The notes beneath the pieces are model-generated. The model did not search any database, was not told the DNA's origin, and saw only the letters and a list, made by a program, of their open reading frames with translations. This document shows, piece by piece, positions 2 to 13,487 of a stretch of 14,174 nucleotides of DNA. The DNA comes from an uncultured archaeon (lineage in GTDB: Archaea > Aenigmatarchaeota > Aenigmatarchaeia > CG10238-14): contig CAYMPD010000026.1 of NCBI GenBank assembly GCA_964392445.1, forward strand, positions 1 to 14,174, read 5' to 3'. The position numbers and the translations under genes are program-made. Position 1 is the first letter of the stretch; each line of letters begins with the position of its first letter.

Positions 2-166
2 TCCAGACTCAAACCAACAATCGGTGGAAGAAGTATGTTGAGATAGAGCACCACCAACACCAGCCAAAACAACGCCCAAACCCACTAAGGCAGATTTAGA
101 AATTCTCCCTTCCTCAGAAAGTAGAAAACCGGAAACTTTCTTCTTAATCTTAGGCAATTTAACCAT
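2..166 (-). CDS. Putative His-Xaa-Ser system precursor peptide, 3'-truncated by the window edge and absent from the ORF track
   Basis: Manual translation from ATG at 166 gives MVKLPKIKKKVSGFLLSEEGRISKSALVGLGVVLAGVGGALSQHTSSTDCWFESG..., open to position 1. An SD-like AGGTG lies just upstream on the minus strand (172-176). It sits 42 bp downstream of hxsB on the same strand and contains H-T-S. Confidence 0.75.
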   Translation of the reverse strand, partial: MVKLPKIKKKVSGFLLSEEGRISKSALVGLGVVLAGVGGALSQHTSSTDCWFESG

Positions 167-208
167 TAATACACCTATAACTACTTTAGTTAAACTTCTA
201 TTTAAAAG

Positions 209-1642
209 TTAAACTCCTTCCTTAGATAAGGACCACTTGGTTAATATATTTCTTTGTTCTGGGGAGAAAACAATCTTTTTCAACACATGTTCTAACATCG
301 ATCCTCTAATTTTACATTCATTATCCGCAGATATATTTCCTATTATTTTACCCTGTTGTCCATAAGTACAAACTAGACAAGACCCGCAAAAAGCTCTCCA
401 AACACAACTTTTACACCTAGTCAATAGACCTGATGAGGCACTGATGATTTCACCTACTTCAGGAGATAAAAACACTTCTTTGTAATCCTGTTCCCTCACA
501 TTCCCAATTTTAAATAGGTCAAAAGACCTAGCTTCATCACATGCATAAATATCACCTTTGTAATCATATGCACATTGAGATAATGCAGCACCACAAGGAA
601 ACCCCCAACACGTATAATTAGGATAATTTGTGGACATAAATTTCCTAGTTATTAGGACTGACATATTTTCTTTGAACTTCACTCCCTTTTTATTCAACTC
701 AAAAATATATTCCAGAATGGTTTTCCAGAAATTTACATATTCTTCAGGCGTATATCCAATTTTTTTCCATAAAGAGCGAGCAAACCCAGCATTGTTTAAC
801 TGTCTAATTCTTATTTTATCAAACCCTCTTTCAACATATTCATCCACAATTTCTTTTGGGTATTTTAAGGAAAATTTAGTGGTTGTTGGTAATGCGTTTA
901 TGTTATAGTCATATTCATTTTTGATAATATCAATCCAACGAACCACACTTTCATAAGAAGATTTATCTCCCAACAGTTTCCTATTTTTATCATGTAGTTC
1001 CTTGGGCCCATCTAACGATGTGCATAGGCTAACCCTATTTTCAATCAAATACTCGAGGATATCATTATCCATCAAAGATAAATTACTGACCATTATGAAA
1101 TTGAGATTCTTCTTTTCTTTTCGATTCTTTTCTTTTGCATATTCTATAATATATTCAACAACTGGGAAGTTTATCAGAGGTTCTCCTCCCTGAAATTCTA
1201 TACCTATCGATTTGGAGGGACATTGAAAAATAAAATCAACAACTTCTTTAGCAATATCTTCGTCCATATCAAACCCTTCAGCGTCAATAGGCTCAGATTT
1301 TGCATGACAATAAATACATCTGTGATTACATCTAAGTGTAGGAGAAACAATGTGGAGATTAACCGAATTGAAGAGAAAAGATTTCCTTGACTTGTAAGCA
1401 TTCACTATATTCTGTTTATTGTTTCCAGTTAGTATTATTCCACTTTTTTCCAATTTTTTAAATAAAATGGGGTTCTTTTGCAATCTTCCAAATCTAAGTA
1501 AATCATATTCTTTTTTCGAAAGAACAGCCCATCCACCGTGAATAGTAGAAACAAAAATATTTTTATCGTCAAGTTTTTTATGGGAAAATTCATTAATCTT
1601 ATAGTTTCCAATCCCAAAACGATCAAAATAACTTATAGCCAA
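209..1642 (-). CDS. hxsB: His-Xaa-Ser system radical SAM/SPASM maturase HxsB
   Basis: LHIVSPTLRCNHRCIYC (CxxxCxxC, 1307-1330), GGEP, SLDG. C-terminal SPASM-type cysteines PCGA...YDYKGDIYACDEAR...CKSCVWRAFCGSCLVC. The LHxVxxTLRC and PCGA/CDE[AG]R signatures match HxsB as I know the family. TTG start preceded by AGGTGA. Adjacent to hxsD-like genes. Confidence 0.85.
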   Translation of the reverse strand: MAISYFDRFGIGNYKINEFSHKKLDDKNIFVSTIHGGWAVLSKKEYDLLRFGRLQKNPILFKKLEKSGIILTGNNKQNIVNAYKSRKSFLFNSVNLHIVSPTLRCNHRCIYCHAKSEPIDAEGFDMDEDIAKEVVDFIFQCPSKSIGIEFQGGEPLINFPVVEYIIEYAKEKNRKEKKNLNFIMVSNLSLMDNDILEYLIENRVSLCTSLDGPKELHDKNRKLLGDKSSYESVVRWIDIIKNEYDYNINALPTTTKFSLKYPKEIVDEYVERGFDKIRIRQLNNAGFARSLWKKIGYTPEEYVNFWKTILEYIFELNKKGVKFKENMSVLITRKFMSTNYPNYTCWGFPCGAALSQCAYDYKGDIYACDEARSFDLFKIGNVREQDYKEVFLSPEVGEIISASSGLLTRCKSCVWRAFCGSCLVCTYGQQGKIIGNISADNECKIRGSMLEHVLKKIVFSPEQRNILTKWSLSKEGV

Positions 1643-1756
1643 AATATCACCTACTTATTTATTTTTTATATCACTTAAAGTAGATATATTTACAGGTAAT
1701 TGATAAGGAATAGGAAGAGATTAAAGAAGAGATATTATCTGTTTTGAAAAATAGGA

Positions 1757-1996
1757 TTAATTGTTCTTGACGGTTGCCAAAACGTAATTATAAAATTCAT
1801 CCTTTAACTTTTCCCCATCAATTTTCCCTTTTTTTGGTAGTAATATCGCAGATGTTGACTCATCAGAGCCATCAACAAGAACCCAAAAGGATTCTGTATA
1901 AGCCTGTGCAGCTAATAAAATATGCTCTTTCTGAAATAATTTTGTGTCAAAATTGACTATAACCTTATTTTTGGACATTTCAGTCATCTCCTCCAT
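1757..1996 (-). CDS. hxsD: HxsD-like protein, short paralog; probable start ATG at 1978 (MSKNKV...)
   Basis: VNFDTKLFQKEHILLAAQAYTESFWVLVDG...LLPKK...KLKDEFYNYVL aligns with the core of the neighbouring HxsD-like ORF (VSVNPYFYNLDVVYSSLYNFLEDNYCKVDG...LKPKK...KLGRKFNNELI). Confidence 0.6.
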   Translation of the reverse strand: MEEMTEMSKNKVIVNFDTKLFQKEHILLAAQAYTESFWVLVDGSDESTSAILLPKKGKIDGEKLKDEFYNYVLATVKNN

Positions 1997-2432
1997 ACTT
2001 CTCTTCCCAAGGTATGTTTATCCCTTCTGGATCCTTTTCCCAGTCTTTCTCTACTTTTTTTTCTTCAACTGGCTGATGTGAGGTCAATGCTCTCTTGACT
2101 ATCTCTATTCTCATATCTTCAGTTTTTAAACCTCTGATATGGATAGAAGCATAATTAATTAGTTCATTGTTGAATTTTCTTCCCAATTTTTCCAAGTCCT
2201 TAACTTTCTTTTTAGGTTTCAATTCCACTAATATTTCATCGTTGGGATCACCATCAACCTTACAATAATTATCTTCTAGGAAATTATAAAGAGAAGAATA
2301 AACAACATCCAAATTGTAGAAATATGGATTCACAGAAACTATGACTTTTTTGGGATGTAATTCTATGTTCTCTATCATTTTTATTTTAGGTTCTTTTTTC
2401 TTCTTAGTCTTTTTGGACTTTTTCTTAGCCAT
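1980..2432 (-). CDS. hxsD: His-Xaa-Ser system protein HxsD-like
   Basis: HxsD-type pattern Y..dvv..s.Y.F.....v.l.....i.V.L.PK....l...F.NEL......i...T..iR..Iv..AL. Lys-rich N-terminus and acidic DPEGINIPWEEKY tail. Located next to hxsB. Confidence 0.7.
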   Translation of the reverse strand: MAKKKSKKTKKKKEPKIKMIENIELHPKKVIVSVNPYFYNLDVVYSSLYNFLEDNYCKVDGDPNDEILVELKPKKKVKDLEKLGRKFNNELINYASIHIRGLKTEDMRIEIVKRALTSHQPVEEKKVEKDWEKDPEGINIPWEEKYGGDD

Positions 2433-2446
2433 TTTACTCTAACCTA

Positions 2447-2457
2447 TTTTATTATAA
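2447..2457 (+). promoter_or_regulatory. Candidate archaeal TATA box in a 43 bp divergent intergenic region
   Basis: TTTTATTATAA lies 19-29 nt upstream of the ATG at 2476, which has no SD. This fits a leaderless transcript. The region is AT-rich, so specificity is low. Confidence 0.3.
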
Positions 2458-2475
2458 GATTTCATATTTTTATCT

Positions 2476-3606
2476 ATGTTGTTAACTGACCCAATTTTTT
2501 TAGGAATATTGATCTTTGGAATTTGGACTTCTTATACTGACATTAAAAACGGGAAAATTAAGAATTTAACTGTTTTTCTTATTCTTATATTTGGTTTAGG
2601 TATAAATCTTTATTTGGGAACTGACATATTGCGAATGTTATTGAATTCTCTAATATCTCTAATTATTGCTTACTTATTATGGGATTTTGATTTTTGGTCG
2701 CCTGGAGATGCCAAGTTATTTTTTGCTTTTACTTTCTTGTTTCCCATAAAAATTTACGAATTGGGAATAATCTCATATTTTCCCTCTTATGTAATTTTAA
2801 TAAACACTTTCGTCCCAGTCGCAGTATTTTCTATCTTTTATTCGATAATTAAGTTAAAACCAAGGTTCCTCAAAGAAAAAATAAATGAGTCATTCTCCCC
2901 CTCATCAATTTCAAGTATAGTCGTCTTTATTGTCGGATTTTCTGCTCTTTTTCAGGTTATAAATATACTTTTTGACGTGAACATTAACCGAATTTTTCAA
3001 ATAATTTTAATGCTAGTAATAGCTGAAAGTTTAAATAAATTCAAAAAATTGTATTTCAATATATTTTCAATACTAATTATCATTTTGTCAATTATAATTT
3101 CCCCATTTAGTATATTGAGCATCGATTTTTTGATCAATCTTCTGTATACATTCCTATTATTCCAGATTTTACGTTTACTTCTGGTGAACCTGGATGAATT
3201 TTTACTCAAAAAGGAGGTCCATATTGAAAACTTGAAACCCGGGATGATACTTGGGGAGCATATAATAAAGAGGGATGGTGAATATGTGAAATATAATAGA
3301 CCAATAGTAACATACTTTGACTTTATAAGAACTGTGAGGAAAAAGTTTTCAGCAAAATTCACAGGAAAGTTATCAGAGGAGGATGTAAATAAGATACAAT
3401 CTTTAAGGAAGAAAGATAAATTAAAATTCGACAAGATAAAAATCTCTAAAACTATCCCATTCGCACCTTTTATTTTCATTGGAATGGTACTAACTTACTT
3501 ATTGAGAGGTAGCATATCCACAATTTTGGCGATTATTATAGGAAAAATCGGCTTATATCTAAATATAATCTATTATAAACTACTTATAGAATTTGGATTA
3601 ATTTAA
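2476..3606 (+). CDS. A24-family prepilin/prearchaellin-type aspartyl peptidase with an archaeal C-terminal domain (EppA/FlaK-like)
   Basis: Polytopic membrane protein. First Asp in SYTDIKNGKIKN, second Asp in WSPGDAKLF (variant of GxGD.KL). Soluble insert KEVHIENLKPGMILGEHI, then the C-terminal IPFAPFIFIG typical of A24 peptidases. Confidence 0.8.
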   Translation: MLLTDPIFLGILIFGIWTSYTDIKNGKIKNLTVFLILIFGLGINLYLGTDILRMLLNSLISLIIAYLLWDFDFWSPGDAKLFFAFTFLFPIKIYELGIISYFPSYVILINTFVPVAVFSIFYSIIKLKPRFLKEKINESFSPSSISSIVVFIVGFSALFQVINILFDVNINRIFQIILMLVIAESLNKFKKLYFNIFSILIIILSIIISPFSILSIDFLINLLYTFLLFQILRLLLVNLDEFLLKKEVHIENLKPGMILGEHIIKRDGEYVKYNRPIVTYFDFIRTVRKKFSAKFTGKLSEEDVNKIQSLRKKDKLKFDKIKISKTIPFAPFIFIGMVLTYLLRGSISTILAIIIGKIGLYLNIIYYKLLIEFGLI

Positions 3607-3619
3607 TTTCGGGATTCGA

Positions 3620-4510
3620 ATGAAAGTCTTGAAGAAAACTTTTAATAGCATAAGGGAAATTAAACCCCTCTCTGGGTTAAATATAGAGAAAATATTACTT
3701 TCATCTCCCTTTTCAATAGTCAGATTAAATGACGCTTCCATAGGTTCCGCAATAAACTATGATAATCTGTTAAATCCAAAAACGGGCTATCAAATTAAAT
3801 TGAGGGAGGAAAAATTCTACTCTGAGGTTCAAGATGATCCCCTATTATGGAATACGCTCGTTGGTGAAAAAGATTTACTTTCCACCTCTTTAAAAGTTTC
3901 TATTTTGAGCGCATTATCTCAAAATTTATTTACAGGTGACTTATTAAGTAAATTTGGAATAAGACTAGAAAGGACAAACTATTCAAATGAATTTGATGGG
4001 GATTTCCAATACTCGGTCCGATCTATAGTGGGAGAGCCAAAAAATACTTTGATTATAGGCGAAGGTGGAATATATCCTTATTATGTCCTAAAAATGAATA
4101 TCCCAAAAGTGACGGTATGTGATATAAAATATAGAGATATTCACCAATTAAGAAAATCTGAGAGGGAAGCTGATCTTCTTATTAGAAAATTTGGTTTTGA
4201 TGGGGATTTGTCATTTATAGACGTCCAAGAAATAGATCACATTGAAAAATCAGTTGATGTTCTTTGGATAACCGGTTCTGTCCTTTGTAATAACACATTT
4301 AGAGAATTAGTGCCGTTATTTGGTAAAGCTAAAAAAGTAGTTTTACAAGGTCCAAGTTGTAGTATTTTTCCAGAACATATCCTTCAATCTGGAGTTACTG
4401 ACATTTTGACTACAATTAAATCCGAAAGGGAATTAGAATTGGGTCAGTTTAAGAGCACTAGAATCTATGATATAGTCGATAAGAACTATATTCATATGAA
4501 AAGAGTGTAA
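3620..4510 (+). CDS. DUF364-like Rossmann-fold protein (putative heavy-metal chelation family)
   Basis: The C-terminal DVLWITGSVLCNNTF...VVLQGPSCSIFPEHILQSGVTDI matches the DUF364 pattern (iTGstlvNgT...vvl.GPSas..p..lf..Gv). There is also a Gly-rich LIIGEGG loop. Confidence 0.65.
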   Translation: MKVLKKTFNSIREIKPLSGLNIEKILLSSPFSIVRLNDASIGSAINYDNLLNPKTGYQIKLREEKFYSEVQDDPLLWNTLVGEKDLLSTSLKVSILSALSQNLFTGDLLSKFGIRLERTNYSNEFDGDFQYSVRSIVGEPKNTLIIGEGGIYPYYVLKMNIPKVTVCDIKYRDIHQLRKSEREADLLIRKFGFDGDLSFIDVQEIDHIEKSVDVLWITGSVLCNNTFRELVPLFGKAKKVVLQGPSCSIFPEHILQSGVTDILTTIKSERELELGQFKSTRIYDIVDKNYIHMKRV

Positions 4511-4551: not shown

Positions 4552-4833
4552 GTGAAACTAATTCCCAGGAAAAGATTGGTCCTATTGACCGTGTTCCTGA
4601 TAGTAATTTTTATCTGGATGTTAGTTTTATCGAATTTAGATATATATCAAATACAAATTTATATGAACAATAGACCATCTGACGGGGATTCTAAGAGAAT
4701 TAAGAGATGCTTTAGTCTAGAATCGAGTTTTGATTGTGTTTCCAATCGAGTTATTTCTGGATATTATATAAAGGCGATAACTTACAAGAATAAGGAAGTG
4801 ATTAGTGAAAATAACTGGGAAGTAGTCGAATGA
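4552..4833 (+). CDS. Small hypothetical membrane-anchored protein
   Basis: GTG start with GGTGAGG SD. Basic N-terminus plus a hydrophobic helix, two Cys. Its stop overlaps the next start (ATGA, 4830-4833). Confidence 0.6.
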   Translation: MKLIPRKRLVLLTVFLIVIFIWMLVLSNLDIYQIQIYMNNRPSDGDSKRIKRCFSLESSFDCVSNRVISGYYIKAITYKNKEVISENNWEVVE

Positions 4834-5375
4834 CTAAGAATTATAAGTGTGAGATATGTGAAAAGAAGTTTTCTAGTAAAAGAGGTTTAGCTATACATAA
4901 GGGAAAAGTTCATAAAAAAAGAGGATTTGCAAAGATCAAAACCAATAGGAAAAAACTTTCAGTTTTGATTTTCCTTTTTTTAGTTTTATTATTTTCCATT
5001 CCATTCTTGATTTCCATTTATAAAAAAATATTCCAAAACTCTATAATAAAAATTCATTCTCCTCTGAATAAGACTTATTTTCAGAAGGAAATACCTATCC
5101 ATGTTTCTTGTGGAGATGAACCTTGTTTATGGATTAAGCACAAAATTGACGATGGGATATTATCAAAGATTACGTGTGGAGAAGGAGAACCATGCGTATT
5201 AATGACTGAAACAGATGAATATCTTTTTGTAACTAGTTGCACAGAGTGTTATAGTTTTAACTTAACTGGGATTGAATTTAGTGATGGTTCTCATTCAGTA
5301 GATGTTAGAGTTAAAGATTATGATGGAAGGGAATATGATTCCAAAGTGACTTTTACTATCAGATGTCAACATTAA
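4830..5375 (+). CDS. C2H2 zinc finger + transmembrane helix + extracellular Ig-like domain protein
   Basis: CEICEKKFSSKRGLAIHKGKVH (C-x2-C-x3-F-x5-L-x2-H-x4-H, 4848-4913). Basic stretch, then TM LSVLIFLFLVLLFSIPFLISIY. Ig-like IHSPLNKTY...GSHSVDVRVKDYDG...VTFTI. Confidence 0.75.
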   Translation: MTKNYKCEICEKKFSSKRGLAIHKGKVHKKRGFAKIKTNRKKLSVLIFLFLVLLFSIPFLISIYKKIFQNSIIKIHSPLNKTYFQKEIPIHVSCGDEPCLWIKHKIDDGILSKITCGEGEPCVLMTETDEYLFVTSCTECYSFNLTGIEFSDGSHSVDVRVKDYDGREYDSKVTFTIRCQH

Positions 5376-5415: not shown

Positions 5416-8400
5416 ATGTTTAATTTGAATTATAAAAAACTGACTTTTTTTGTATCTTTGTTTATTTTTCTTATAATTTTGACGGGTCTTGTCTATTCTG
5501 CATGTGGCAGCCACTGGGTAGTTAAAATAAAAGTCTGGGTCGAAGGTGGACCTTCTAATACTTGCACTGTAGATAATGAGGGTACATCTCCAATCTGCTC
5601 AGTATCTTATTCTACGCCTGGAGAACATACAGGTCGTGCTGAGAGTTATGATCGAGCTGATAAAGTATGTAGTTCAGCTAGTACTTCTTTTGAAATCTGT
5701 CCTCCTCGATGTAGTTATCAAGAAACCAGTCAATCAGCAATTGATACTTATTGTGAAGCTATTGGATTTTCTTGTGATTATGGATATGTGAACCCAATGA
5801 CATGTTATAGTGGTGAAACCTGTCCCAGTTGGAAAAATTATGGGTTAGATTGTAACCCACCTTATTGTAATTGTGAATGTTGTGAATGTGATGGAGAAGT
5901 TAACTTGTGCACTAATAATTGTGATGTGGATTGTGGTGCTGAGTCTGCTTGTGATGAGAAGAGCCCTGGAGAAAATATAGGTTATTGTAACAAAGGTGGT
6001 TGTAGTGCTATTCATGACAAATGTGACAGTAATTGTAATGTGGTTGATAGATCAGACATGACTTGTAGAAAGACTGGGGTTTCGGATTGTACTGGAGCTG
6101 CTGTATGTGATTTGGTGACATCAGGAGATGATATCCCGTATTGTGACAAGGGTGGGGAAACATATTTCGGGGATAAATGTCAGGATTGTACTTGTCAACC
6201 TGTTGATAGAGGGGATAATATATGTAGATCTTCTGGGTCTCTCGGATCAAGTGATGGGTGTACTGCTCATTCTGAATGTAATGGTAAAAGTCCTGGTGAT
6301 GCTTGGGAAGGGAATATTTGGATTTATGACGCATGTAAATGGTGTGATTCTTCCTGTGGTCTTGACTATGAACTAAAAACAAATGTTAATAATTACTACA
6401 CTTCAGGATCTACATGTTATTATAATTGTGATCTTGTTTGTCGAGAGGGTGGATATGTAAGGGAAAATTGCGACAGTTGTAATACGGGTGAATGTTGTGA
6501 ATGTAGTTCTTCTGGTTGTTCGCCTGACAATACTCAATGTGATGGGGATTGTAAAAGTGATTGTAGTTGTGAAACGTGTTATGATGTTTGTCTTAATGAA
6601 GGGTATTTTGGGGCATTTTGTAGTTCAGATAGCAATTTTTGCAGTAATTTTCCTCTCTGTCTCTGGGGTTATTGTTACTACGACTGTTTTCGTCAATCAA
6701 ATAGTTATGACTGTGGGGACTATTGTTATTGTTATAATTACGAAGAATGTGATTGTGACACGATGAATTGTGTGGATGGTTCAGGGTGTATTGCTGCCAC
6801 AACGACGACAACTACTACAACTACAACTACAACGACTACGACTACTACCACAACAACGACAACAACCACAACTACTACCACAACCACAACGACAATTTGT
6901 GAATGTTCAGTAGATTCAGATTGTGACTCCACTTGCTATTGTAGTAGTGTATATGAATGTTCCTGTTATCTGAGCTCGACTTGTGATGGTTGTAATTGTG
7001 TAAGTGGTAATACTTACTTCTGCGATAATTCCTGCACAGATTTATGTGACTCAGGACAGTGTTCAGAATGTGCATGTGTACCAACTACTACAACGACCAC
7101 TACAACAACTACTACTACAACAATCCAGTCCATCTTATCCTTAACTCCAGAATCTGGACCCCTAGGATATACTGTAACTGCAGACGTCCCAGATGATTCA
7201 TATAAAGTATGTGATTATCAAGGTTGTTCTGGGTCAAATTGTGATGGTACATTAATAAGAACTGGAGATGGGACTTTTTCCGCACCATCGGCTGTGGGTA
7301 CCTATGAATATTACGCCTGTCCTGGAGAGGGTTATGACTCTATAACTGTGAACTGTGGCTCAAACTGCGAACCTAATCACTGTGTTTCCCCTGATTGTAT
7401 ATGTCCTTTTGGAGAGGGAGATTGTGATGTTAATGATGATTGTAATCCAGGGCTTATTTGTGGTATAGATATAGGTGATGATCCATTGTTTGGTTGCTCT
7501 GATATTCCTGAAGGAACTGTTGATGTTTGTGTAGAATGTACAGATCATTCGGATTGTCTAGGAACCGAAGGAATTGATATTTGTTGTTTAAATGACCAAA
7601 TCACTAAAGATGTATGTGAGTCTTCGGGAAAATATAGATGTCTAACAAATTGTACAGCAGATAATAATTGTACACAGTGTGCTTGTGATGCATCAGACTC
7701 AGATGGGGGTATTGATTATAGTAACCAAGGTATCTGTACAGACTTCAAAGGATGTAATTTAACTTTAGCAGTTGACGATTGTCTCCCTACTGATAGTTTT
7801 ACAGATTATTGTCTGAAAACAGCTCCTAATTGTACCATAGATGGATGTACTTGTGGTTATAATGTTACCGGCGGCGACACTTGTATAGACGAGAGTTGGG
7901 ATATGTTTGGAGGAGAAACCATTTATGGTGATTGTTGTTATTGTTGCCAGTGTTGTTATTGTGAAAATTTTATCACCGGAGATAGAGTAACTTGTGGAGA
8001 GGATGGTAGCTGTCCTGTAGGTTACAATTCTATAAGAGATAAATGTCTTGATGATGGTACATGTCTTGATGATCCATCTAAGCCTTATAATAATATCAAA
8101 TCTAGCTGTAACCAAGATGGGACATGCCCAAGTATTGATGATGAACTTAATATAACCTATGAGTCTCAATGTGGTGAATACGTTTTCGAGCATTTTGTAT
8201 CTGGTTCAGGTGATGATGCTTATTGTCCAAATGAAACAGATCAGAGTTATAATTGTTTAGAGTATGGTTCCAATTGTTATTGTCAAAATGGGGCTTGTGG
8301 ATGTCCCACTCCTGGAGATTATGAGAACTGTGAGAGCTGTACAAATTCTGGTTATGAATGGTGTGATAATCCAGGGACCTGTTCAAATGACTGTACACCA

Positions 8401-9954
8401 CTAAACTGTGCTGGAAATTGTATAATTACTTCTACAAATTGTCCCGCTACTACTACTACAACAACAACAACCACCACGACTACTATTCCCAACCATGGTT
8501 TATTAGTATTTGTCTCCTCTCAAAAATATCAAGGTTCTAACTTAGGCGGTTTAACAGATGCTAGTGCTAAATGTCAAAATATGGCCGATAATGCGGGCCT
8601 ATCCACAAGATACTTCAAAGCGTGGTTATCTGACTGGGAAACAGATGCTAGGGATAGATTTATAACTCGAGGACTTCCCTATTATCGATTAGATATAGTT
8701 AAAGTAGCTGATGATTTCTCAGATTTAACTGATAGAAATATAGATAATCCTATTAATGTTAATGAAACTGGGAATTTAATAACATACAAACCTTATAATG
8801 TTTGGACAGGGACCAATGAAACTGGTATTGAAAATGTTACTTGTGGAACCACTGGTAACTGGTCCACTGGATCGGAAACAGATATAGGGACAAGTGGATC
8901 CATATTACATACAACTTATAACTGGACTTACAATTACACCTTCAAATGTACAAATGAATCTAGAATTTATTGTATTGAGGATACAGCATGTGGTAATGGT
9001 ATTATAAATGTGGGAGAGCAATGTGACGGATCAGAATGGGGGCCGATAACTGGCTGTCAAGATTTTGATGATTTTACTGGAGGGACATTATCATGTACAT
9101 CTTTTTGTAAATTTAACACCACATTATGTGAAAAATTGGACAGTGTTTGTGGAGATGGGGTTATAGATCAGGGTGAGACATGTGACGGTTCTAATTGGGG
9201 GCCGATAACTGGCTGTCAAGATTTTGATGATTTTACTGGAGGGATATTAAGTTGTTATCCTGCAGGAGATGAGTCTGAATGTAGGTTTAATACTTCAGGA
9301 TGTGAAGGTGGACCTACGGGAGTTTGTGGAGATGGGGTTATAGATCAGGGTGAGACATGTGACGGTTCTAATTGGGGGCCGATAAATAATTGTACTGATT
9401 TTGATGATTTTACTGGAGGGATATTGACATGTGGAGAGGATTGTAAGTTTAACAGTTCTTTCTGTTTTAATTGTGGAGATGGAGTTATAGATGCGGGAGA
9501 ACAATGTGACGGGTCAGAATGGGGGCCGATAACTGGCTGTCAAAATTTTGATGATTTTACTGGAGGGATATTAAGTTGTTATTCTGTAGGACATGAATAT
9601 GAATGTTTGTTTGACACCTCATCTTGTGAAGGTGGTGCTTCAAAGGATTGTGGAGATGGTATATTACAAAATTCTGAGGAATGCGACTATCTTAGATCCA
9701 ACCCGGATTCTCCCTGTGAAACTTATGAATATTGTAATAATACCTGTAATTGTTATGATTTTAGAAATGATGCTAGTGGGTGTAACTACTATGATTACTG
9801 TGAAGATGGTCATGCGCCAGAGGATCCAAGTACATTATGTTCATCTGATTGGGATGCTTATTGTTATTCCGTAACGGATCCAATAGGTATTCAGGATATT
9901 TGCTCAGATTCAAGTTATTGGAATCATACCTTAGCAACATGCCCAGAAGGGTGA
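5416..9954 (+). CDS. Giant secreted cysteine-rich surface protein (1512 aa) with poly-Thr linkers, a DUF1554/endostatin-like domain and CGDG (Myxococcus Cys-rich/DUF4215-like) repeats
   Basis: N-terminal signal peptide. 64 Cys in the first 461 aa by manual count. Three poly-Thr tracts. Ig/IPT-like segment LSLTPESGPLG. DSDGG module. VFVSS...GGLTDASAKCQ...KAWLSD...VWTGT...IYCIE domain. Five CGDG...GE.CDG repeats. No C-terminal TM. Confidence 0.85.
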   Translation: MFNLNYKKLTFFVSLFIFLIILTGLVYSACGSHWVVKIKVWVEGGPSNTCTVDNEGTSPICSVSYSTPGEHTGRAESYDRADKVCSSASTSFEICPPRCSYQETSQSAIDTYCEAIGFSCDYGYVNPMTCYSGETCPSWKNYGLDCNPPYCNCECCECDGEVNLCTNNCDVDCGAESACDEKSPGENIGYCNKGGCSAIHDKCDSNCNVVDRSDMTCRKTGVSDCTGAAVCDLVTSGDDIPYCDKGGETYFGDKCQDCTCQPVDRGDNICRSSGSLGSSDGCTAHSECNGKSPGDAWEGNIWIYDACKWCDSSCGLDYELKTNVNNYYTSGSTCYYNCDLVCREGGYVRENCDSCNTGECCECSSSGCSPDNTQCDGDCKSDCSCETCYDVCLNEGYFGAFCSSDSNFCSNFPLCLWGYCYYDCFRQSNSYDCGDYCYCYNYEECDCDTMNCVDGSGCIAATTTTTTTTTTTTTTTTTTTTTTTTTTTTTTTTICECSVDSDCDSTCYCSSVYECSCYLSSTCDGCNCVSGNTYFCDNSCTDLCDSGQCSECACVPTTTTTTTTTTTTTIQSILSLTPESGPLGYTVTADVPDDSYKVCDYQGCSGSNCDGTLIRTGDGTFSAPSAVGTYEYYACPGEGYDSITVNCGSNCEPNHCVSPDCICPFGEGDCDVNDDCNPGLICGIDIGDDPLFGCSDIPEGTVDVCVECTDHSDCLGTEGIDICCLNDQITKDVCESSGKYRCLTNCTADNNCTQCACDASDSDGGIDYSNQGICTDFKGCNLTLAVDDCLPTDSFTDYCLKTAPNCTIDGCTCGYNVTGGDTCIDESWDMFGGETIYGDCCYCCQCCYCENFITGDRVTCGEDGSCPVGYNSIRDKCLDDGTCLDDPSKPYNNIKSSCNQDGTCPSIDDELNITYESQCGEYVFEHFVSGSGDDAYCPNETDQSYNCLEYGSNCYCQNGACGCPTPGDYENCESCTNSGYEWCDNPGTCSNDCTPLNCAGNCIITSTNCPATTTTTTTTTTTTIPNHGLLVFVSSQKYQGSNLGGLTDASAKCQNMADNAGLSTRYFKAWLSDWETDARDRFITRGLPYYRLDIVKVADDFSDLTDRNIDNPINVNETGNLITYKPYNVWTGTNETGIENVTCGTTGNWSTGSETDIGTSGSILHTTYNWTYNYTFKCTNESRIYCIEDTACGNGIINVGEQCDGSEWGPITGCQDFDDFTGGTLSCTSFCKFNTTLCEKLDSVCGDGVIDQGETCDGSNWGPITGCQDFDDFTGGILSCYPAGDESECRFNTSGCEGGPTGVCGDGVIDQGETCDGSNWGPINNCTDFDDFTGGILTCGEDCKFNSSFCFNCGDGVIDAGEQCDGSEWGPITGCQNFDDFTGGILSCYSVGHEYECLFDTSSCEGGASKDCGDGILQNSEECDYLRSNPDSPCETYEYCNNTCNCYDFRNDASGCNYYDYCEDGHAPEDPSTLCSSDWDAYCYSVTDPIGIQDICSDSSYWNHTLATCPEG
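5932..6300 (+). repeat. Internal Cys-rich protein repeat, about 2.3 copies of 52-57 aa
   Basis: Units start at 5932 (CGAESACDEKSPG...YCNKGG...DKC...DRSDMTCR), 6088 (CTGAAVC...SGDDIPYCDKGG...DKC...DRGDNICR) and 6259 (CTAHSECNGKSPGD). Confidence 0.65.
6799..6894 (+). repeat. Poly-Thr tract, 32 codons (ACN)n
   Basis: Read directly from the sequence; ACA, ACT, ACG and ACC are mixed. Confidence 0.95.
7084..7122 (+). repeat. Poly-Thr tract, 13 codons
   Basis: Read directly from the sequence. Confidence 0.95.
8449..8484 (+). repeat. Poly-Thr tract, 12 codons
   Basis: Read directly from the sequence. Confidence 0.95.
8500..8979 (+). other. DUF1554/endostatin-like (C-type-lectin-related fold) domain inside the giant protein
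   Basis: LVFVSSQKYQGSNLGGLTDASAKCQNMADNAGL...FKAWLSD...PYYRLD..KVADDFSDL...PINVNETG...VWTGT...C..W...G..G......W......C....RIYCIE matches the consensus as I know it. Confidence 0.7.
8989..9720 (+). repeat. Tandem CGDG/CGNG cysteine-rich repeats: four full units and a degenerate fifth
   Basis: Units start at 8989, 9148, 9325, 9472 and 9649 (53, 59, 49 and 59 aa). Perfect DNA duplications: 9145-9208 = 9322-9385 (64 bp) and 9037-9085 = 9196-9244 (49 bp). Confidence 0.9.
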
Positions 9955-10426: not shown

Positions 10427-10779
10427 TAATCCTGATATTTATCATCTTAACCTTTGTTGTCATTACTCTCCGAAATAAAAGTATGACTGTAAATGTAATA
10501 TATCTTAGGAAATCAAGTTGTATTATAATCAACCAAACAGATAGGATAATGGAAGAATTTGAAGATAAATTCGGAAGTGAATTATCAATAAAAACTGTGG
10601 ATCTAGACCATGAACAAAACATCACAAAAGAAGATAGAGATATGATAAATAAATATCAAATTATAGGAATACCATTAATAATCATTAATGGGAAAGAATA
10701 TAGGAAAGGTTTCACAGAAAAGAATATAAAAAGGGAGATTTGTAGAAGTTTCCTGATTAAACCCGAGGAATGTAAATGA
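10393..10779 (+). CDS. Membrane-anchored thioredoxin/glutaredoxin-fold protein with one active-site Cys
   Basis: N-terminal TM. VNVIYLRKSSCIII sits at the CxxC position. KYQIIGIPLIIING carries the cis-Pro motif. C-terminal IC...EEC pair. Confidence 0.65.
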   Translation: MVNNEKTKIGLVILIFIILTFVVITLRNKSMTVNVIYLRKSSCIIINQTDRIMEEFEDKFGSELSIKTVDLDHEQNITKEDRDMINKYQIIGIPLIIINGKEYRKGFTEKNIKREICRSFLIKPEECK

Positions 10780-11342
10780 AAAAGATGGTTTTTGCTTTAA
10801 TTTTTTCACTCTTCTTAATTAGAGGCATTAATGCTGGTTTCTGTTGTAAAGATCCAAATACAGGTCAGGAAAAATGTTGGGATTATGGAGAATGTTGTAA
10901 TGGGTTTTGGTACATATCTTGTCACGATTTTACTATTAGTGTTTCTGGTCCTAATGTTTTTCGCGTGGGACAAAAAACTCCTGTGACGGTTTACATCGAA
11001 AATACCGGAGCCTATTCAGATAGTTATACATTAACTTATGAGGTCAGAGACTGTAACCCAGATTTAGTTCAGGTGGATATGACGGGCGCGGATCAGATAA
11101 CAAATCTTGGTCCTGGAGAGATCGGGAAAGTATATCCTAGAATAACCGTCCTTGCAAGTACTGTTACTGGAACTGTTAGATTTAATGCAACATCAACAAA
11201 ACCAGAAACAAAATACGATGATTTGCTTATCTTGGAATCAGATGTTTATCTTAGTCTTCCAGAATTTTCTGGTATTTATTTCATTCAATTAAGTCTTTTG
11301 ATAGGAATTATTTATTTTCTCAAAACTCGAAATTATTTTTGA
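10776..11342 (+). CDS. Secreted Ig-like protein with a PEF-CTERM-type sorting signal
   Basis: Signal peptide. Small Cys-rich N-terminal module (CC..C..CC..C). VYIENTGAYSDSYTL. LPEF (11256-11267) followed by a TM and a basic tail KTR. ATGA-coupled to the upstream gene. Confidence 0.7.
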   Translation: MKKMVFALIFSLFLIRGINAGFCCKDPNTGQEKCWDYGECCNGFWYISCHDFTISVSGPNVFRVGQKTPVTVYIENTGAYSDSYTLTYEVRDCNPDLVQVDMTGADQITNLGPGEIGKVYPRITVLASTVTGTVRFNATSTKPETKYDDLLILESDVYLSLPEFSGIYFIQLSLLIGIIYFLKTRNYF

Positions 11343-11346
11343 TAGA

Positions 11347-11874
11347 ATGAAGAAGATGAGATATTTTTTAATTATACTTTTAATGTGGAGTTTTAGTTTT
11401 GAGGTAGTTTACTCTCAACTCTACAACTTCAAAACATGGTCTGAAAGGAAGGGTATATTCACGATCGGTGTTCCATCACCATTTTTGATTTACGTCCAAA
11501 ATATAGGAAATACAGCAGATAATTACACAATAACATACGACGTTGATTATAACCCATCTGGGGATGATTTATCACATCTTATCGACATCCATCTGGTGTC
11601 AAATAGAATAGAAAATCTTGAGGCTAATCGAACTAGAGATACTCAAGGAGCAATAACACTTTTAGGTCCAGTTTTTAACCCCCCCAACGCTAACATAACG
11701 TTTAACGTCACTTCGGAGAATAGTGGAAATCTGAACCAAACATCAATTGAAATTTCTGGTGGAGCTTCTGGAGGATTTCTAAAAACGCTTCCAGAATTTG
11801 GGTTAATAGGCTTTTTAGAATTATTTCTACTTATATGTCTAGTGATATTTTATCGTCCTAAAATAGTTTTTTAA
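11347..11874 (+). CDS. Secreted Ig-like protein with a PEF-CTERM-type sorting signal; paralog of the upstream gene
   Basis: Signal peptide. IYVQNIGNTADNYTITY and FNVTS align with VYIENTGAYSDSYTLTY and FNATS in the upstream gene. LPEFG (from 11788) followed by a TM and RPK. Confidence 0.7.
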   Translation: MKKMRYFLIILLMWSFSFEVVYSQLYNFKTWSERKGIFTIGVPSPFLIYVQNIGNTADNYTITYDVDYNPSGDDLSHLIDIHLVSNRIENLEANRTRDTQGAITLLGPVFNPPNANITFNVTSENSGNLNQTSIEISGGASGGFLKTLPEFGLIGFLELFLLICLVIFYRPKIVF

Positions 11875-12143: not shown

Positions 12144-12416
12144 CTAGTAATATTTTATTCCCTTCATCTCTGCTAGTGTTTTTTCAATGTTCTTAATCCT
12201 TTCCGTCATGGTTCTGTTTTGTATCTTGATGTTGTCTAACTCTGTCAGTATTAAATCTAGTCTTGCTTTGAGATTGTCCATGTGGATTCTTTCTTCTTGG
12301 TCTTTTGACTTTTTTTCTTCTGGGATTGGGGGTAGTTTCTTTGATAAATTATCCAAGTCCGAAATATCTCGTCTTTTTCTCTTTTTCCTTCCAAATATTT
12401 TTTTGAAAATGTTCAT
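12144..12416 (-). CDS. Hypothetical protein with a C-terminal coiled coil
   Basis: Heptad pattern LKARLDLILTELDNIKIQNRTMTERIKNIEKTL. GAGGA SD. ATGA overlap with the upstream gene. Confidence 0.7.
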   Translation of the reverse strand: MNIFKKIFGRKKRKRRDISDLDNLSKKLPPIPEEKKSKDQEERIHMDNLKARLDLILTELDNIKIQNRTMTERIKNIEKTLAEMKGIKYY

Positions 12417-12943
12417 ACTATCCTCTTCTCATCTGTTGGTGTTATGTTTAATAATTCTTGATATTTTCTTTTCATATCTTCTATTTTTTGTCTGCACCAG
12501 AAGTCCAAGTATTTCTTTCTCTGTTTCTGGTGAAAGTATCTGTCATAAAACCAATAAAAAGCTCTTGCAATTGGGTTATTTATATCCTCAAAAATAGTAG
12601 AGCCACCATATGAAGTTTTAAGAACTCCACCAATTGATATTTTAACCCAACCTTCTTTATTAGGATCAGAGGGTTGAACACCCTGAATTACCACTTCTAT
12701 TATTACTGTACTAAAACGATCTAAGCCCTTATCAACATAGGCATTTAAGTAGAATCCTCTTGGATCCTCATCCGGGTTGTATCTGAATTGTCTCTCCCAA
12801 TAGTCCTTCTTTTCAACCTCCCAAAGCTCTCTTAAAAAATCTGGAGTTTTTTGTACAGCCCTAAAAGGATTAGGTCCTTTAAAGTTAATCCTAAGGGTAC
12901 CAAAAGGAACTAAACAATCTTGCTCTAATGTCATCTTAGCCAA
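12413..12943 (-). CDS. Hypothetical protein, GPNP-motif paralog 2
   Basis: TTG start with AGGTGA SD overlapping the upstream stop. Aligns over its full length with 12954..13487. Confidence 0.75.
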   Translation of the reverse strand: MAKMTLEQDCLVPFGTLRINFKGPNPFRAVQKTPDFLRELWEVEKKDYWERQFRYNPDEDPRGFYLNAYVDKGLDRFSTVIIEVVIQGVQPSDPNKEGWVKISIGGVLKTSYGGSTIFEDINNPIARAFYWFYDRYFHQKQRKKYLDFWCRQKIEDMKRKYQELLNITPTDEKRIV

Positions 12944-12953
12944 GTTAATTCAC

Positions 12954-13487
12954 CTATTCTTTGGGTATTAAATTAAAGAAAGCCTTCATTTCATTAGTAA
13001 AATTAGTCATTATTTCTCTACACTTATCTATGTATTTCTCTCTTTTATCCTGGTAAAAAACCTTATGCCAAAATGTTCTTGCTATCTCATAAAAAATTGA
13101 TCTTTCCCAGAGATTATCTTGAGGATATTCAGTTCTTAGAACTCCAGCTACCTCTATATGAATTTTACCTTCTTTTCCATCCTGATTCTTTTCCATAAAA
13201 CCTTTCATCTTTACTTTAAGATAAAGATAAGAAAACCTATCCAAGTCCTTACTAATCTGCCACGAAACTGAAAATTCTTCTCTATTACCTTTTTTATTCC
13301 ATTTATAGTCCCTTTCCTGAACTCTCTCTGTCTCTTTTACACCAAAAATAGTCCAAAGACATTCCTTAATCTTATTATAAGCCAAATGTGGATTGGGTCC
13401 TTCATAATCTATATGCAATAAAGGCTCTCCTGCAAAATCAAAACAATCTTCTTGGAGTAAAAGTTTAGTTCTTGCGAATATCGGCAT
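12954..13487 (-). CDS. Hypothetical protein, GPNP-motif paralog 1
   Basis: ATG with GGTGA SD. Shares L.QDC/L.EDC, GPNP, ER, K.LDRFS, KEG...I...GVL.T, F.....Q..R.KY.D.C with its neighbour. Confidence 0.75.
   Translation of the reverse strand: MPIFARTKLLLQEDCFDFAGEPLLHIDYEGPNPHLAYNKIKECLWTIFGVKETERVQERDYKWNKKGNREEFSVSWQISKDLDRFSYLYLKVKMKGFMEKNQDGKEGKIHIEVAGVLRTEYPQDNLWERSIFYEIARTFWHKVFYQDKREKYIDKCREIMTNFTNEMKAFFNLIPKE

Follow-up and report, generated by a model that had tools for sequence, protein, structure and literature searches.

What is a membrane peptidase of the prepilin type doing beside genes that equip a cell to modify a peptide by radical S-adenosylmethionine (SAM) chemistry? The question is raised by contig CAYMPD010000026.1 (here C26) of assembly GCA_964392445.1, from an uncultured archaeon of the Aenigmatarchaeota. 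The window analysed is the entire contig, 14,174 nucleotides long, and belongs to a host genome of 1.2 Mb in 54 contigs, with roughly 30% GC and an estimated completeness of 94.9%. Positions 2-3606 of the window hold a variant, found in Aenigmatarchaeota (DPANN), of the His-Xaa-Ser (HXS) radical-SAM system. Its core consists of five genes: an A24 membrane aspartyl peptidase, hxsD, an hxsD-like gene (hxsD'), hxsB and the precursor gene hxsA. We argue that the peptidase probably serves as a dedicated leader protease for a secreted, His-rich peptide that HxsB has modified.

Four of the five genes lie on the reverse strand. The hxsD gene (2432 to 1980), which encodes a Lys-rich N-terminal extension, overlaps hxsD' (1996 to 1757) by 17 nt; hxsB, encoding a radical SAM/SPASM maturase, occupies 1642 to 209, and the precursor open reading frame (ORF) begins 42 nt after it and runs from 166 to 2, where it leaves the contig after 55 codons. 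The peptidase gene (2476-3606, forward strand, 376 residues) stands head-to-head with hxsD across an AT-rich intergenic region of 43 bp (2433-2475). All of the genes are intact except that of the precursor, which is truncated by the contig end. A first-pass annotation of this DNA, made from the letters alone, had named the same set, two hxsD genes, hxsB and a small ORF with a divergent A24 gene, and had read it as an Hxs locus. Both the gene set and the identification hold up.

The identification is carried first by HxsB, which scores 445.6 bits against TIGR03978 (cut-off 370) in NCBIfam profile searches and also matches the Pfam families Radical_SAM, Fer4_12 and SPASM. Its CNHRCIYC motif, of the CxxxCxxC form, spans residues 105-112, and a SPASM Cys cluster is present as well. 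HxsD reaches 42.2 bits on TIGR03976, below the cut-off of 50, and HxsD' 34 bits on NF038315, below the cut-off of 41; their orthologues in one relative, both taken from a single locus, score 54.7 and 77.5 bits and lie above these cut-offs. A search with the HxsB, HxsC and HxsD models had been proposed in the first-pass annotation; it finds HxsB above its cut-off, an HxsD score that is below the cut-off in the window and above it in the relative, and no HxsC on this contig. The HxsD motif N-E-L-I-N-Y loosely resembles the bacterial LLNDYxLRE in an alignment of 44 sequences. An AlphaFold2 model of HxsD (mean predicted local distance difference test score, pLDDT, 87.8), compared with 48,161 chains, gave a top Z of 7.2 in a tie among unrelated alpha/beta proteins; no clear fold relative and no leader-binding domain were recognised in this comparison. 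The 2023 release of PADLOC has no HXS model, and in it HxsB matched just weak, generic viperin radical-SAM models.

We then asked how regularly the peptidase and the Hxs genes occur together. The host genome encodes two HxsB proteins and three A24 peptidases, and each hxsB locus has an A24 gene less than 5 kb away. These two linked peptidases share 31% identity over 163 residues (E 2e-11). The third A24 protein, of 284 residues with a canonical GGGDAK motif, resembles the linked pair just around the active site. Among 371 genomes of the phylum, HxsB (E<=1e-60) was detected in 33, representing 28 genera and 36 loci. For 26 of the 36, Pfam detects an A24 gene no more than 8.5 kb away on the same contig, and usually no more than 2.5 kb away; of the remaining ten, most are at contig ends or on short contigs. 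Gene maps of the loci give a common core of A24, HxsD, HxsD-like protein, HxsB and a small HxsA-like ORF. A subtype profile built from an alignment of 27 linked peptidases and applied to the same 371 genomes (E<=1e-20) matched in 32: both genes were found in 31 genomes, the peptidase only in 1, HxsB only in 2 and neither in 337, the positive co-occurrences being partly circular because the profile derives from HxsB-linked genes. The absence of the subtype from HxsB-negative genomes, the 337 with neither gene, is not circular and is informative.

The linkage was also approached from the other side. A scan for the peptidase motif only, with one genome per species, yielded 258 relatives. The best 80 of these 258, which were examined, belong for the most part to Aenigmatarchaeota, Woesearchaeota, Nanoarchaeota, Micrarchaeota, Iainarchaeota, Undinarchaeota and Altiarchaeales. 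Full-length HxsB was present at 57 of the 80 loci, at a median distance of 691 bp, and in most of the other 23, HxsD, a truncated HxsB, HxsC-like genes or HxsA can be seen near the end of a contig. For 85 of 93 unique peptidase genes an Hxs gene lies within 6 kb; within the same distance, an HxsD-like gene is found in 57/93 and an HxsC-like gene in 45/93. Beyond the radical-SAM, HxsD, A24 and HxsA families, no neighbour cluster occurs in more than 9 of the 93 loci. Of 76 related loci, 65 have the peptidase and its closest core gene on one strand, and the median gap is 38.5 bp; the usual order across DPANN is A24-hxsD-hxsD'-hxsB-hxsA on a single strand, the divergent arrangement of the window being a minority form. 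The adjacency of A24 and hxs genes is far beyond chance. A functional tie between them, which the first-pass annotation had suggested and which a lack of linkage in related genomes would have contradicted, is therefore well supported.

The peptidase itself scores 27.5 bits against PF01478, marginally above the cut-off of 26.5, and 35.2 bits (cut-off 23.4) against PF06819, the archaeal A24 C-terminal domain; no NCBIfam model matches it. Asp22 and Asp78 are invariant in an alignment of 27 orthologues. The second catalytic Asp lies in the motif W-S/P-x-G-D-A-K-L-F, which reads WSPGDAKLF in the window, so that the first Gly of GxGD is replaced. A search of the Protein Data Bank (PDB) with the 27-sequence profile found no A24 structure at E values up to 1, and Foldseek searches of the PDB with the peptidase model gave weak matches, FlaK appearing at rank 32 (E 2.6). 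In a full structural comparison (VIA-align), FlaK (3S0X_B) was the top match, with Z 12.1 and a root-mean-square deviation of 3.7 over 165 aligned residues; the runner-up had Z 5.5. The AlphaFold2 model used (pLDDT 83.7) is a helical bundle with a cytoplasmic beta-rich insert at about residues 245-325.

With FlaK, PibD and EppA (PF01478, PF06819; 3S0X) the Hxs-type A24 proteins thus share a polytopic architecture, two catalytic Asp residues, the second in x-G-D-x-K, and the FlaK fold with its cytoplasmic beta-rich insert. They differ in forming a long-branched clade, in their length (340-395 residues versus about 250-315), in adjoining radical-SAM genes rather than pilus or archaellum genes, and in the long leader of their presumed substrate. 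In a quick maximum-likelihood tree of linked (n=27) and housekeeping (n=21) A24 proteins from the same genomes, the two types are split by one long branch with an SH-aLRT (Shimodaira-Hasegawa-like approximate likelihood ratio test) support of 100. The peptidase is a distinct paralog that is inherited and lost together with hxsB and usually belongs to the same operon. At least 755 clusters (50% identity) match the subtype profile at E<=1e-30 among 1.84 billion proteins.

If the peptidase is a protease of this system, its presumed substrate is the product of hxsA. The truncated ORF of the window scores 22.8 bits against NF038309 and is recognised as a precursor by the leader that it shares with its relatives. 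Among 57 distinct precursors the N-terminus is better conserved than the cores. It forms a highly conserved leader of about 20-25 residues with the consensus [LIF]-P-K-I-K-K-x-I-S-S-F-L-x-x-E-E-G-K-I-S-K, in which the Gly is present in 57/57, the Pro in 55/57, the Glu in 54/57 and the last Lys in 55/57. Two variable polar residues follow (Gln, Glu or His, then Ser, Ala or Lys), then a hydrophobic stretch, itself with a Gly conserved in 53 of the 57, and an Ala-rich region resembling a signal-peptidase site. The invariant Gly lies 6-7 residues ahead of the hydrophobic stretch, and no small residue is conserved directly before the helix. Many cores begin with H-T-N-S and continue in long His-Xaa-Ser arrays, often ending S-Y or G-S-C-W-T-C-Q. 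The fragment in the window fits this pattern, with its invariant Gly at Gly20, a Gly-rich hydrophobic stretch of 16 residues (26-41) and a core starting H-T-S-S.

Over its 55 residues, this fragment shares 80% identity with the start of the precursor of a sister species. That precursor is a different one, of 545 residues, whose large C-terminal domain matches no family and was absent from the host genome of the window when it was searched. All six of the relatives' precursors that were scanned fall below the HxsA3 and HxsA4 cut-offs, the best at 54.1 against 55, and no peptidoglycan-binding domain was found in the precursors inspected or scanned. Two relatives carry unusual fusions behind the same leader: one precursor (L038:7059-8366, reverse strand) is joined to two self-cleaving Hint/intein-type domains, and another (L074:11710-12309, forward strand) to a Peptidase_S74 (endosialidase chaperone) domain.

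The first-pass annotation had described Hxs systems as merely predicted loci for peptides made by the ribosome and modified post-translationally (RiPPs), a description now outdated. The bacterial system of Pseudomonadota, with the gene order hxsD-hxsB-hxsC-hxsA, keeps phage DNA from entering E. coli (Li et al., Nat Commun 2026; PMC13128918). Its effector is HxsA, which carries +8 Da on one repeat and is periplasmic and anchored to peptidoglycan; the anti-phage function is known only for E. coli (PMC13128918). N-terminal processing of the bacterial HxsA requires HxsB, HxsC and HxsD and differs from the usual removal of a signal peptide; the protease is left unnamed, and the paper mentions neither archaea nor any peptidase (PMC13128918).

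The archaeal variant shares with the canonical system (TIGR03976-03979) an HxsB above the cut-off, small HxsD-type proteins (that of the window scoring below the HxsD cut-off), and precursors that have His-Xaa-Ser repeats in the relatives with complete genes, a probable export signal and a probable processing of the N-terminus. It differs in having a dedicated A24 peptidase, two HxsD paralogs and an HxsC outside the core. Its leader of about 20 residues precedes the hydrophobic stretch, whereas in the bacterial protein the signal peptide comes first. The archaeal precursors also have many more His-Xaa-Ser repeats, and the variant resides in DPANN hosts. The best matches for its parts are to the NCBIfam variant models HxsA3 (NF038309), HxsA4 (NF038313), HxsD_rel (NF038315) and HxsC4 (NF038332), which indicates that parts of a variant system have already been catalogued. 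We found no paper that describes the variant or ties a prepilin-type peptidase to radical-SAM peptide maturation, in a search that left most subscription journals outside its reach.

A24 enzymes such as PilD, FlaK and PibD act on substrates inserted in the membrane, which they cleave on its cytoplasmic side behind a Gly, Ala or Ser. The gene content of the DPANN variant suggests that a private enzyme of this family makes the N-terminal cut. Starting from the gene identities, co-inheritance and conserved residues, which are observed directly, we infer a substrate, a cut site, an order of steps and a biological role. HxsA would be made with its conserved leader of about 20 residues ([LIF]-P-K-I-K-K...F-L-x-x-E-E-G) in the cytoplasm, where it may act as a handle for HxsD, HxsD' and HxsB, and HxsB would modify the His-Xaa-Ser core there. 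The hydrophobic stretch would then enter the membrane and the peptidase would remove the leader on the cytoplasmic side. A membrane-inserted intermediate of this kind is plausible, since a hydrophobic stretch comes after a charged leader. The cut would most likely fall after the invariant Gly (Gly20 in the window), since A24 enzymes cut after Gly, Ala or Ser and the Gly of E-E-G is the sole invariant small residue of the leader, and it would leave K/R-I-S-K and the hydrophobic stretch. This remnant, K-I-S-K, hydrophobic stretch and Ala-rich site, has the layout of a Sec signal, so that the His-rich core would probably be exported and freed by signal peptidase, with no pilus assembly. For the product, an antiviral role located in the envelope is our leading guess, made by analogy with the bacterial system.

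Several observations weigh against this scheme. The contig that carries the locus has no HxsC: Pfam and NCBIfam scans detected none in the window. The precursor ORF stops at 55 codons, ahead of any His-Xaa-Ser repeat, and the linked peptidases have changed GxGD to S/P/T-x-G-D. Besides the circularity mentioned above, the related genomes are non-independent samples. The proposed cut site is deduced solely from conservation and from the behaviour of A24 enzymes in other systems; the 6-7 residues between the Gly and the hydrophobic stretch exceed the distance in classic prepilins, and the Lys or Arg after the invariant Gly is unusual for known A24 sites. Finally, a second protease seems redundant if signal peptidase cuts in the Ala-rich region, unless the order of the two cuts matters.

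Such an order is the subject of a more tentative elaboration, which we regard as possible although rather doubtful. The leader would act as a mask and the peptidase as a checkpoint: a cut after the Gly, made once modification is finished, would expose the Sec-type signal and export the peptide. It is similarly possible, at the same low level of confidence, that until then the conserved tag would hold the precursor at the cytoplasmic radical-SAM machinery.

Among the other explanations, the one that survives best would have signal peptidase I make the productive cut and the A24 enzyme cleave the remnant of leader and signal, or else serve as a scaffold or export partner. The Ala-rich c-region after the hydrophobic stretch in many relatives would suit such a clean-up, GxGD proteases include the signal peptide peptidases, and the stronger conservation of the leader relative to the core may point to a separate use for it. 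We consider it unlikely, since both catalytic Asp residues are invariant, which argues against a pure scaffold, and since to our knowledge every A24 enzyme characterised so far cleaves its full-length substrate on the cytoplasmic side.

Somewhat less probable still is a pilin-like fate, in which the helix would stay on the modified peptide after leader removal and the product would be displayed at the surface or built into a filament resembling a type IV pilus. Pilins and archaellins are the normal substrates of A24 enzymes, the N-terminus of the precursor is charged and leads into a hydrophobic stretch, and a few loci do have a T2SSE ATPase near the peptidase. These loci number 4 of 93 for a pilus-type T2SSE cluster within 6 kb, however, and the window has none. 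The hydrophobic stretch is short and rich in Gly and Ala and leads into the Ala-rich, signal-peptidase-like region; the core is a low-complexity His/Ser repeat; and the self-cleaving Hint or S74 domains on some precursors are not suggestive of filament subunits. The precursors also lack the mark of a type IV pilin or class III signal peptide, in which a short charged leader ends in Gly, Ala or Ser directly before a hydrophobic helix of about 20 residues that the mature protein keeps. The first-pass annotation had combined two ideas here, a precursor inserted in the membrane like a prepilin and trimmed by the neighbouring peptidase, and a product that is a pilin or surface-anchored peptide; the charged leader and hydrophobic stretch keep the former plausible, and the latter is not supported by the ATPase counts, the short stretch and the missing small residue.

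That the gene encodes the general prepilin/prearchaellin peptidase and lies beside hxsD by accident is hardly credible: its marginal Pfam score and its opposite strand in the window would fit, but the genome has a separate, shorter and better-scoring A24 protein, nearly all other HxsB-positive genomes searched have a similar second copy, the linked and housekeeping types separate cleanly on the tree, 31 of the 371 genomes have both genes against 3 with just one, and the peptidase is co-operonic with Hxs genes in most loci.

A dedicated leader protease would bear on two points that the 2026 bacterial study left open, the protease that removes the HxsA N-terminus and the coupling of maturation to export. 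For these the archaeal variant supplies a candidate protease, together with a conserved leader whose invariant Gly is open to mutation. If the proposal is true, aspartyl intramembrane proteases would join the known leader proteases of modified peptides, prepilin-type peptidases would gain a role outside pili and archaella, and an HXS-type system, possibly antiviral, would be present in DPANN archaea with genomes near 1 Mb. Some of the HXS-carrying Aenigmatarchaeota genomes have the system twice. Should the leader also prove to be a mask and the peptidase a checkpoint, this would couple peptide maturation to secretion in a new way and give radical-SAM peptide pathways their first aspartyl (GxGD) leader protease, and the product could be an antiviral barrier in the envelope of DPANN archaea. 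One close parallel is EpeP, an M50 protease embedded in the membrane, which has been proposed to link leader removal to export of the modified peptide in the epipeptide radical-SAM RiPP system (PMC10885120). EpeP is a metalloprotease and the Hxs-type A24 enzyme an aspartyl GxGD protease, and the two families are unrelated. A 2023 review of RiPP leader proteases mentions no aspartic, A24 or prepilin-type enzyme (PMC10885120).

Another contig of the assembly, C30, probably carries at its end the missing part of the precursor of the window, although the join is unproven. At 8959-9199, contig C30 runs out within a perfect tandem repeat of 18 nt in 6.1 copies, which encodes H-S-S-H-G-S units and is followed by a Cys-rich part and a T-T-S tail. 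This end is the sole open-ended His-Xaa-Ser-repeat frame in the assembly; no exact overlap was found between the start of C26 and any contig end. The contigs of many relatives also stop 1-2.5 kb past hxsB. Repeat DNA of this kind seems to break short-read assemblies regularly, and precursors are consequently under-reported.

Positions 221-8931 of C30 encode a 639-residue radical SAM/SPASM protein, a DUF362/Npun_F2552-family protein, a B12-binding radical-SAM protein, an HxsC-like protein and another radical-SAM protein, and would extend the locus should C30 prove to join the window. Of the 93 related peptidase genes, 23 have a gene for a relative of the 639-residue protein within 6 kb.

The second hxsB of the genome belongs to another, larger Hxs-type cluster on contig C16 (about 3500-18500 of stretch L014, which is C16:5000-24000). 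It includes genes for HxsB, an HxsD-like protein and four HxsC-like radical-SAM proteins, with its own A24 gene in the middle, as well as three U32-peptidase-like genes, a YcaO gene (possibly split, at 6655-6831) and a gene for a beta-propeller protein of the PQQ (pyrroloquinoline quinone) type. The HxsC-like proteins of C16 and C30 score 100-126 bits, below the HxsC cut-off of 267.9. The C16 precursor is HxsA3-like, with 137 residues and an irregular His/Ser/Gly content, and the C16 peptidase groups with that of a distant genome (G356) rather than with that of the window.

The rest of the window carries genes of other kinds. A DUF364 gene (3620-4510, forward strand) begins 13 nt after the peptidase gene and was considered as a part of the system; it was rejected, as no other of the first 38 loci has it. 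It is absent from the locus of the sister species, where the next two genes are kept, and so looks like a local insertion. These two genes (4552-5375, forward strand) encode a membrane protein of 93 residues and a protein of 181 residues that has a C2H2 zinc finger and a membrane helix. Further along, a pair of tandem paralogs on the reverse strand (12413-12943 and 12954-13487; 176 and 177 residues, 30% identity, E 2e-23) has no match in Pfam, NCBIfam or PADLOC.

Another gene of the window (5416-9954, forward strand) encodes a predicted secreted protein of 1512 residues that is very Cys-rich and has long poly-Thr linkers. It contains four to five repeats of a module, C-G-D-G-V-I-x-x-G-E-x-C-D-G...F-D-D-F-T-G-G, and matches no Pfam or NCBIfam family; its GC content is about 38-40%, compared with about 30% for the rest of the window. 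Two forward-strand genes that lie beyond it (10776-11342 and 11347-11874) encode paralogous small secreted proteins (26% identity, E 6e-12) with no NCBIfam or Pfam match. The C-terminus of each consists of L-P-E-F, then a hydrophobic stretch and a short basic tail, an arrangement that we take to resemble an archaeosortase sorting signal of the PEF-CTERM type.

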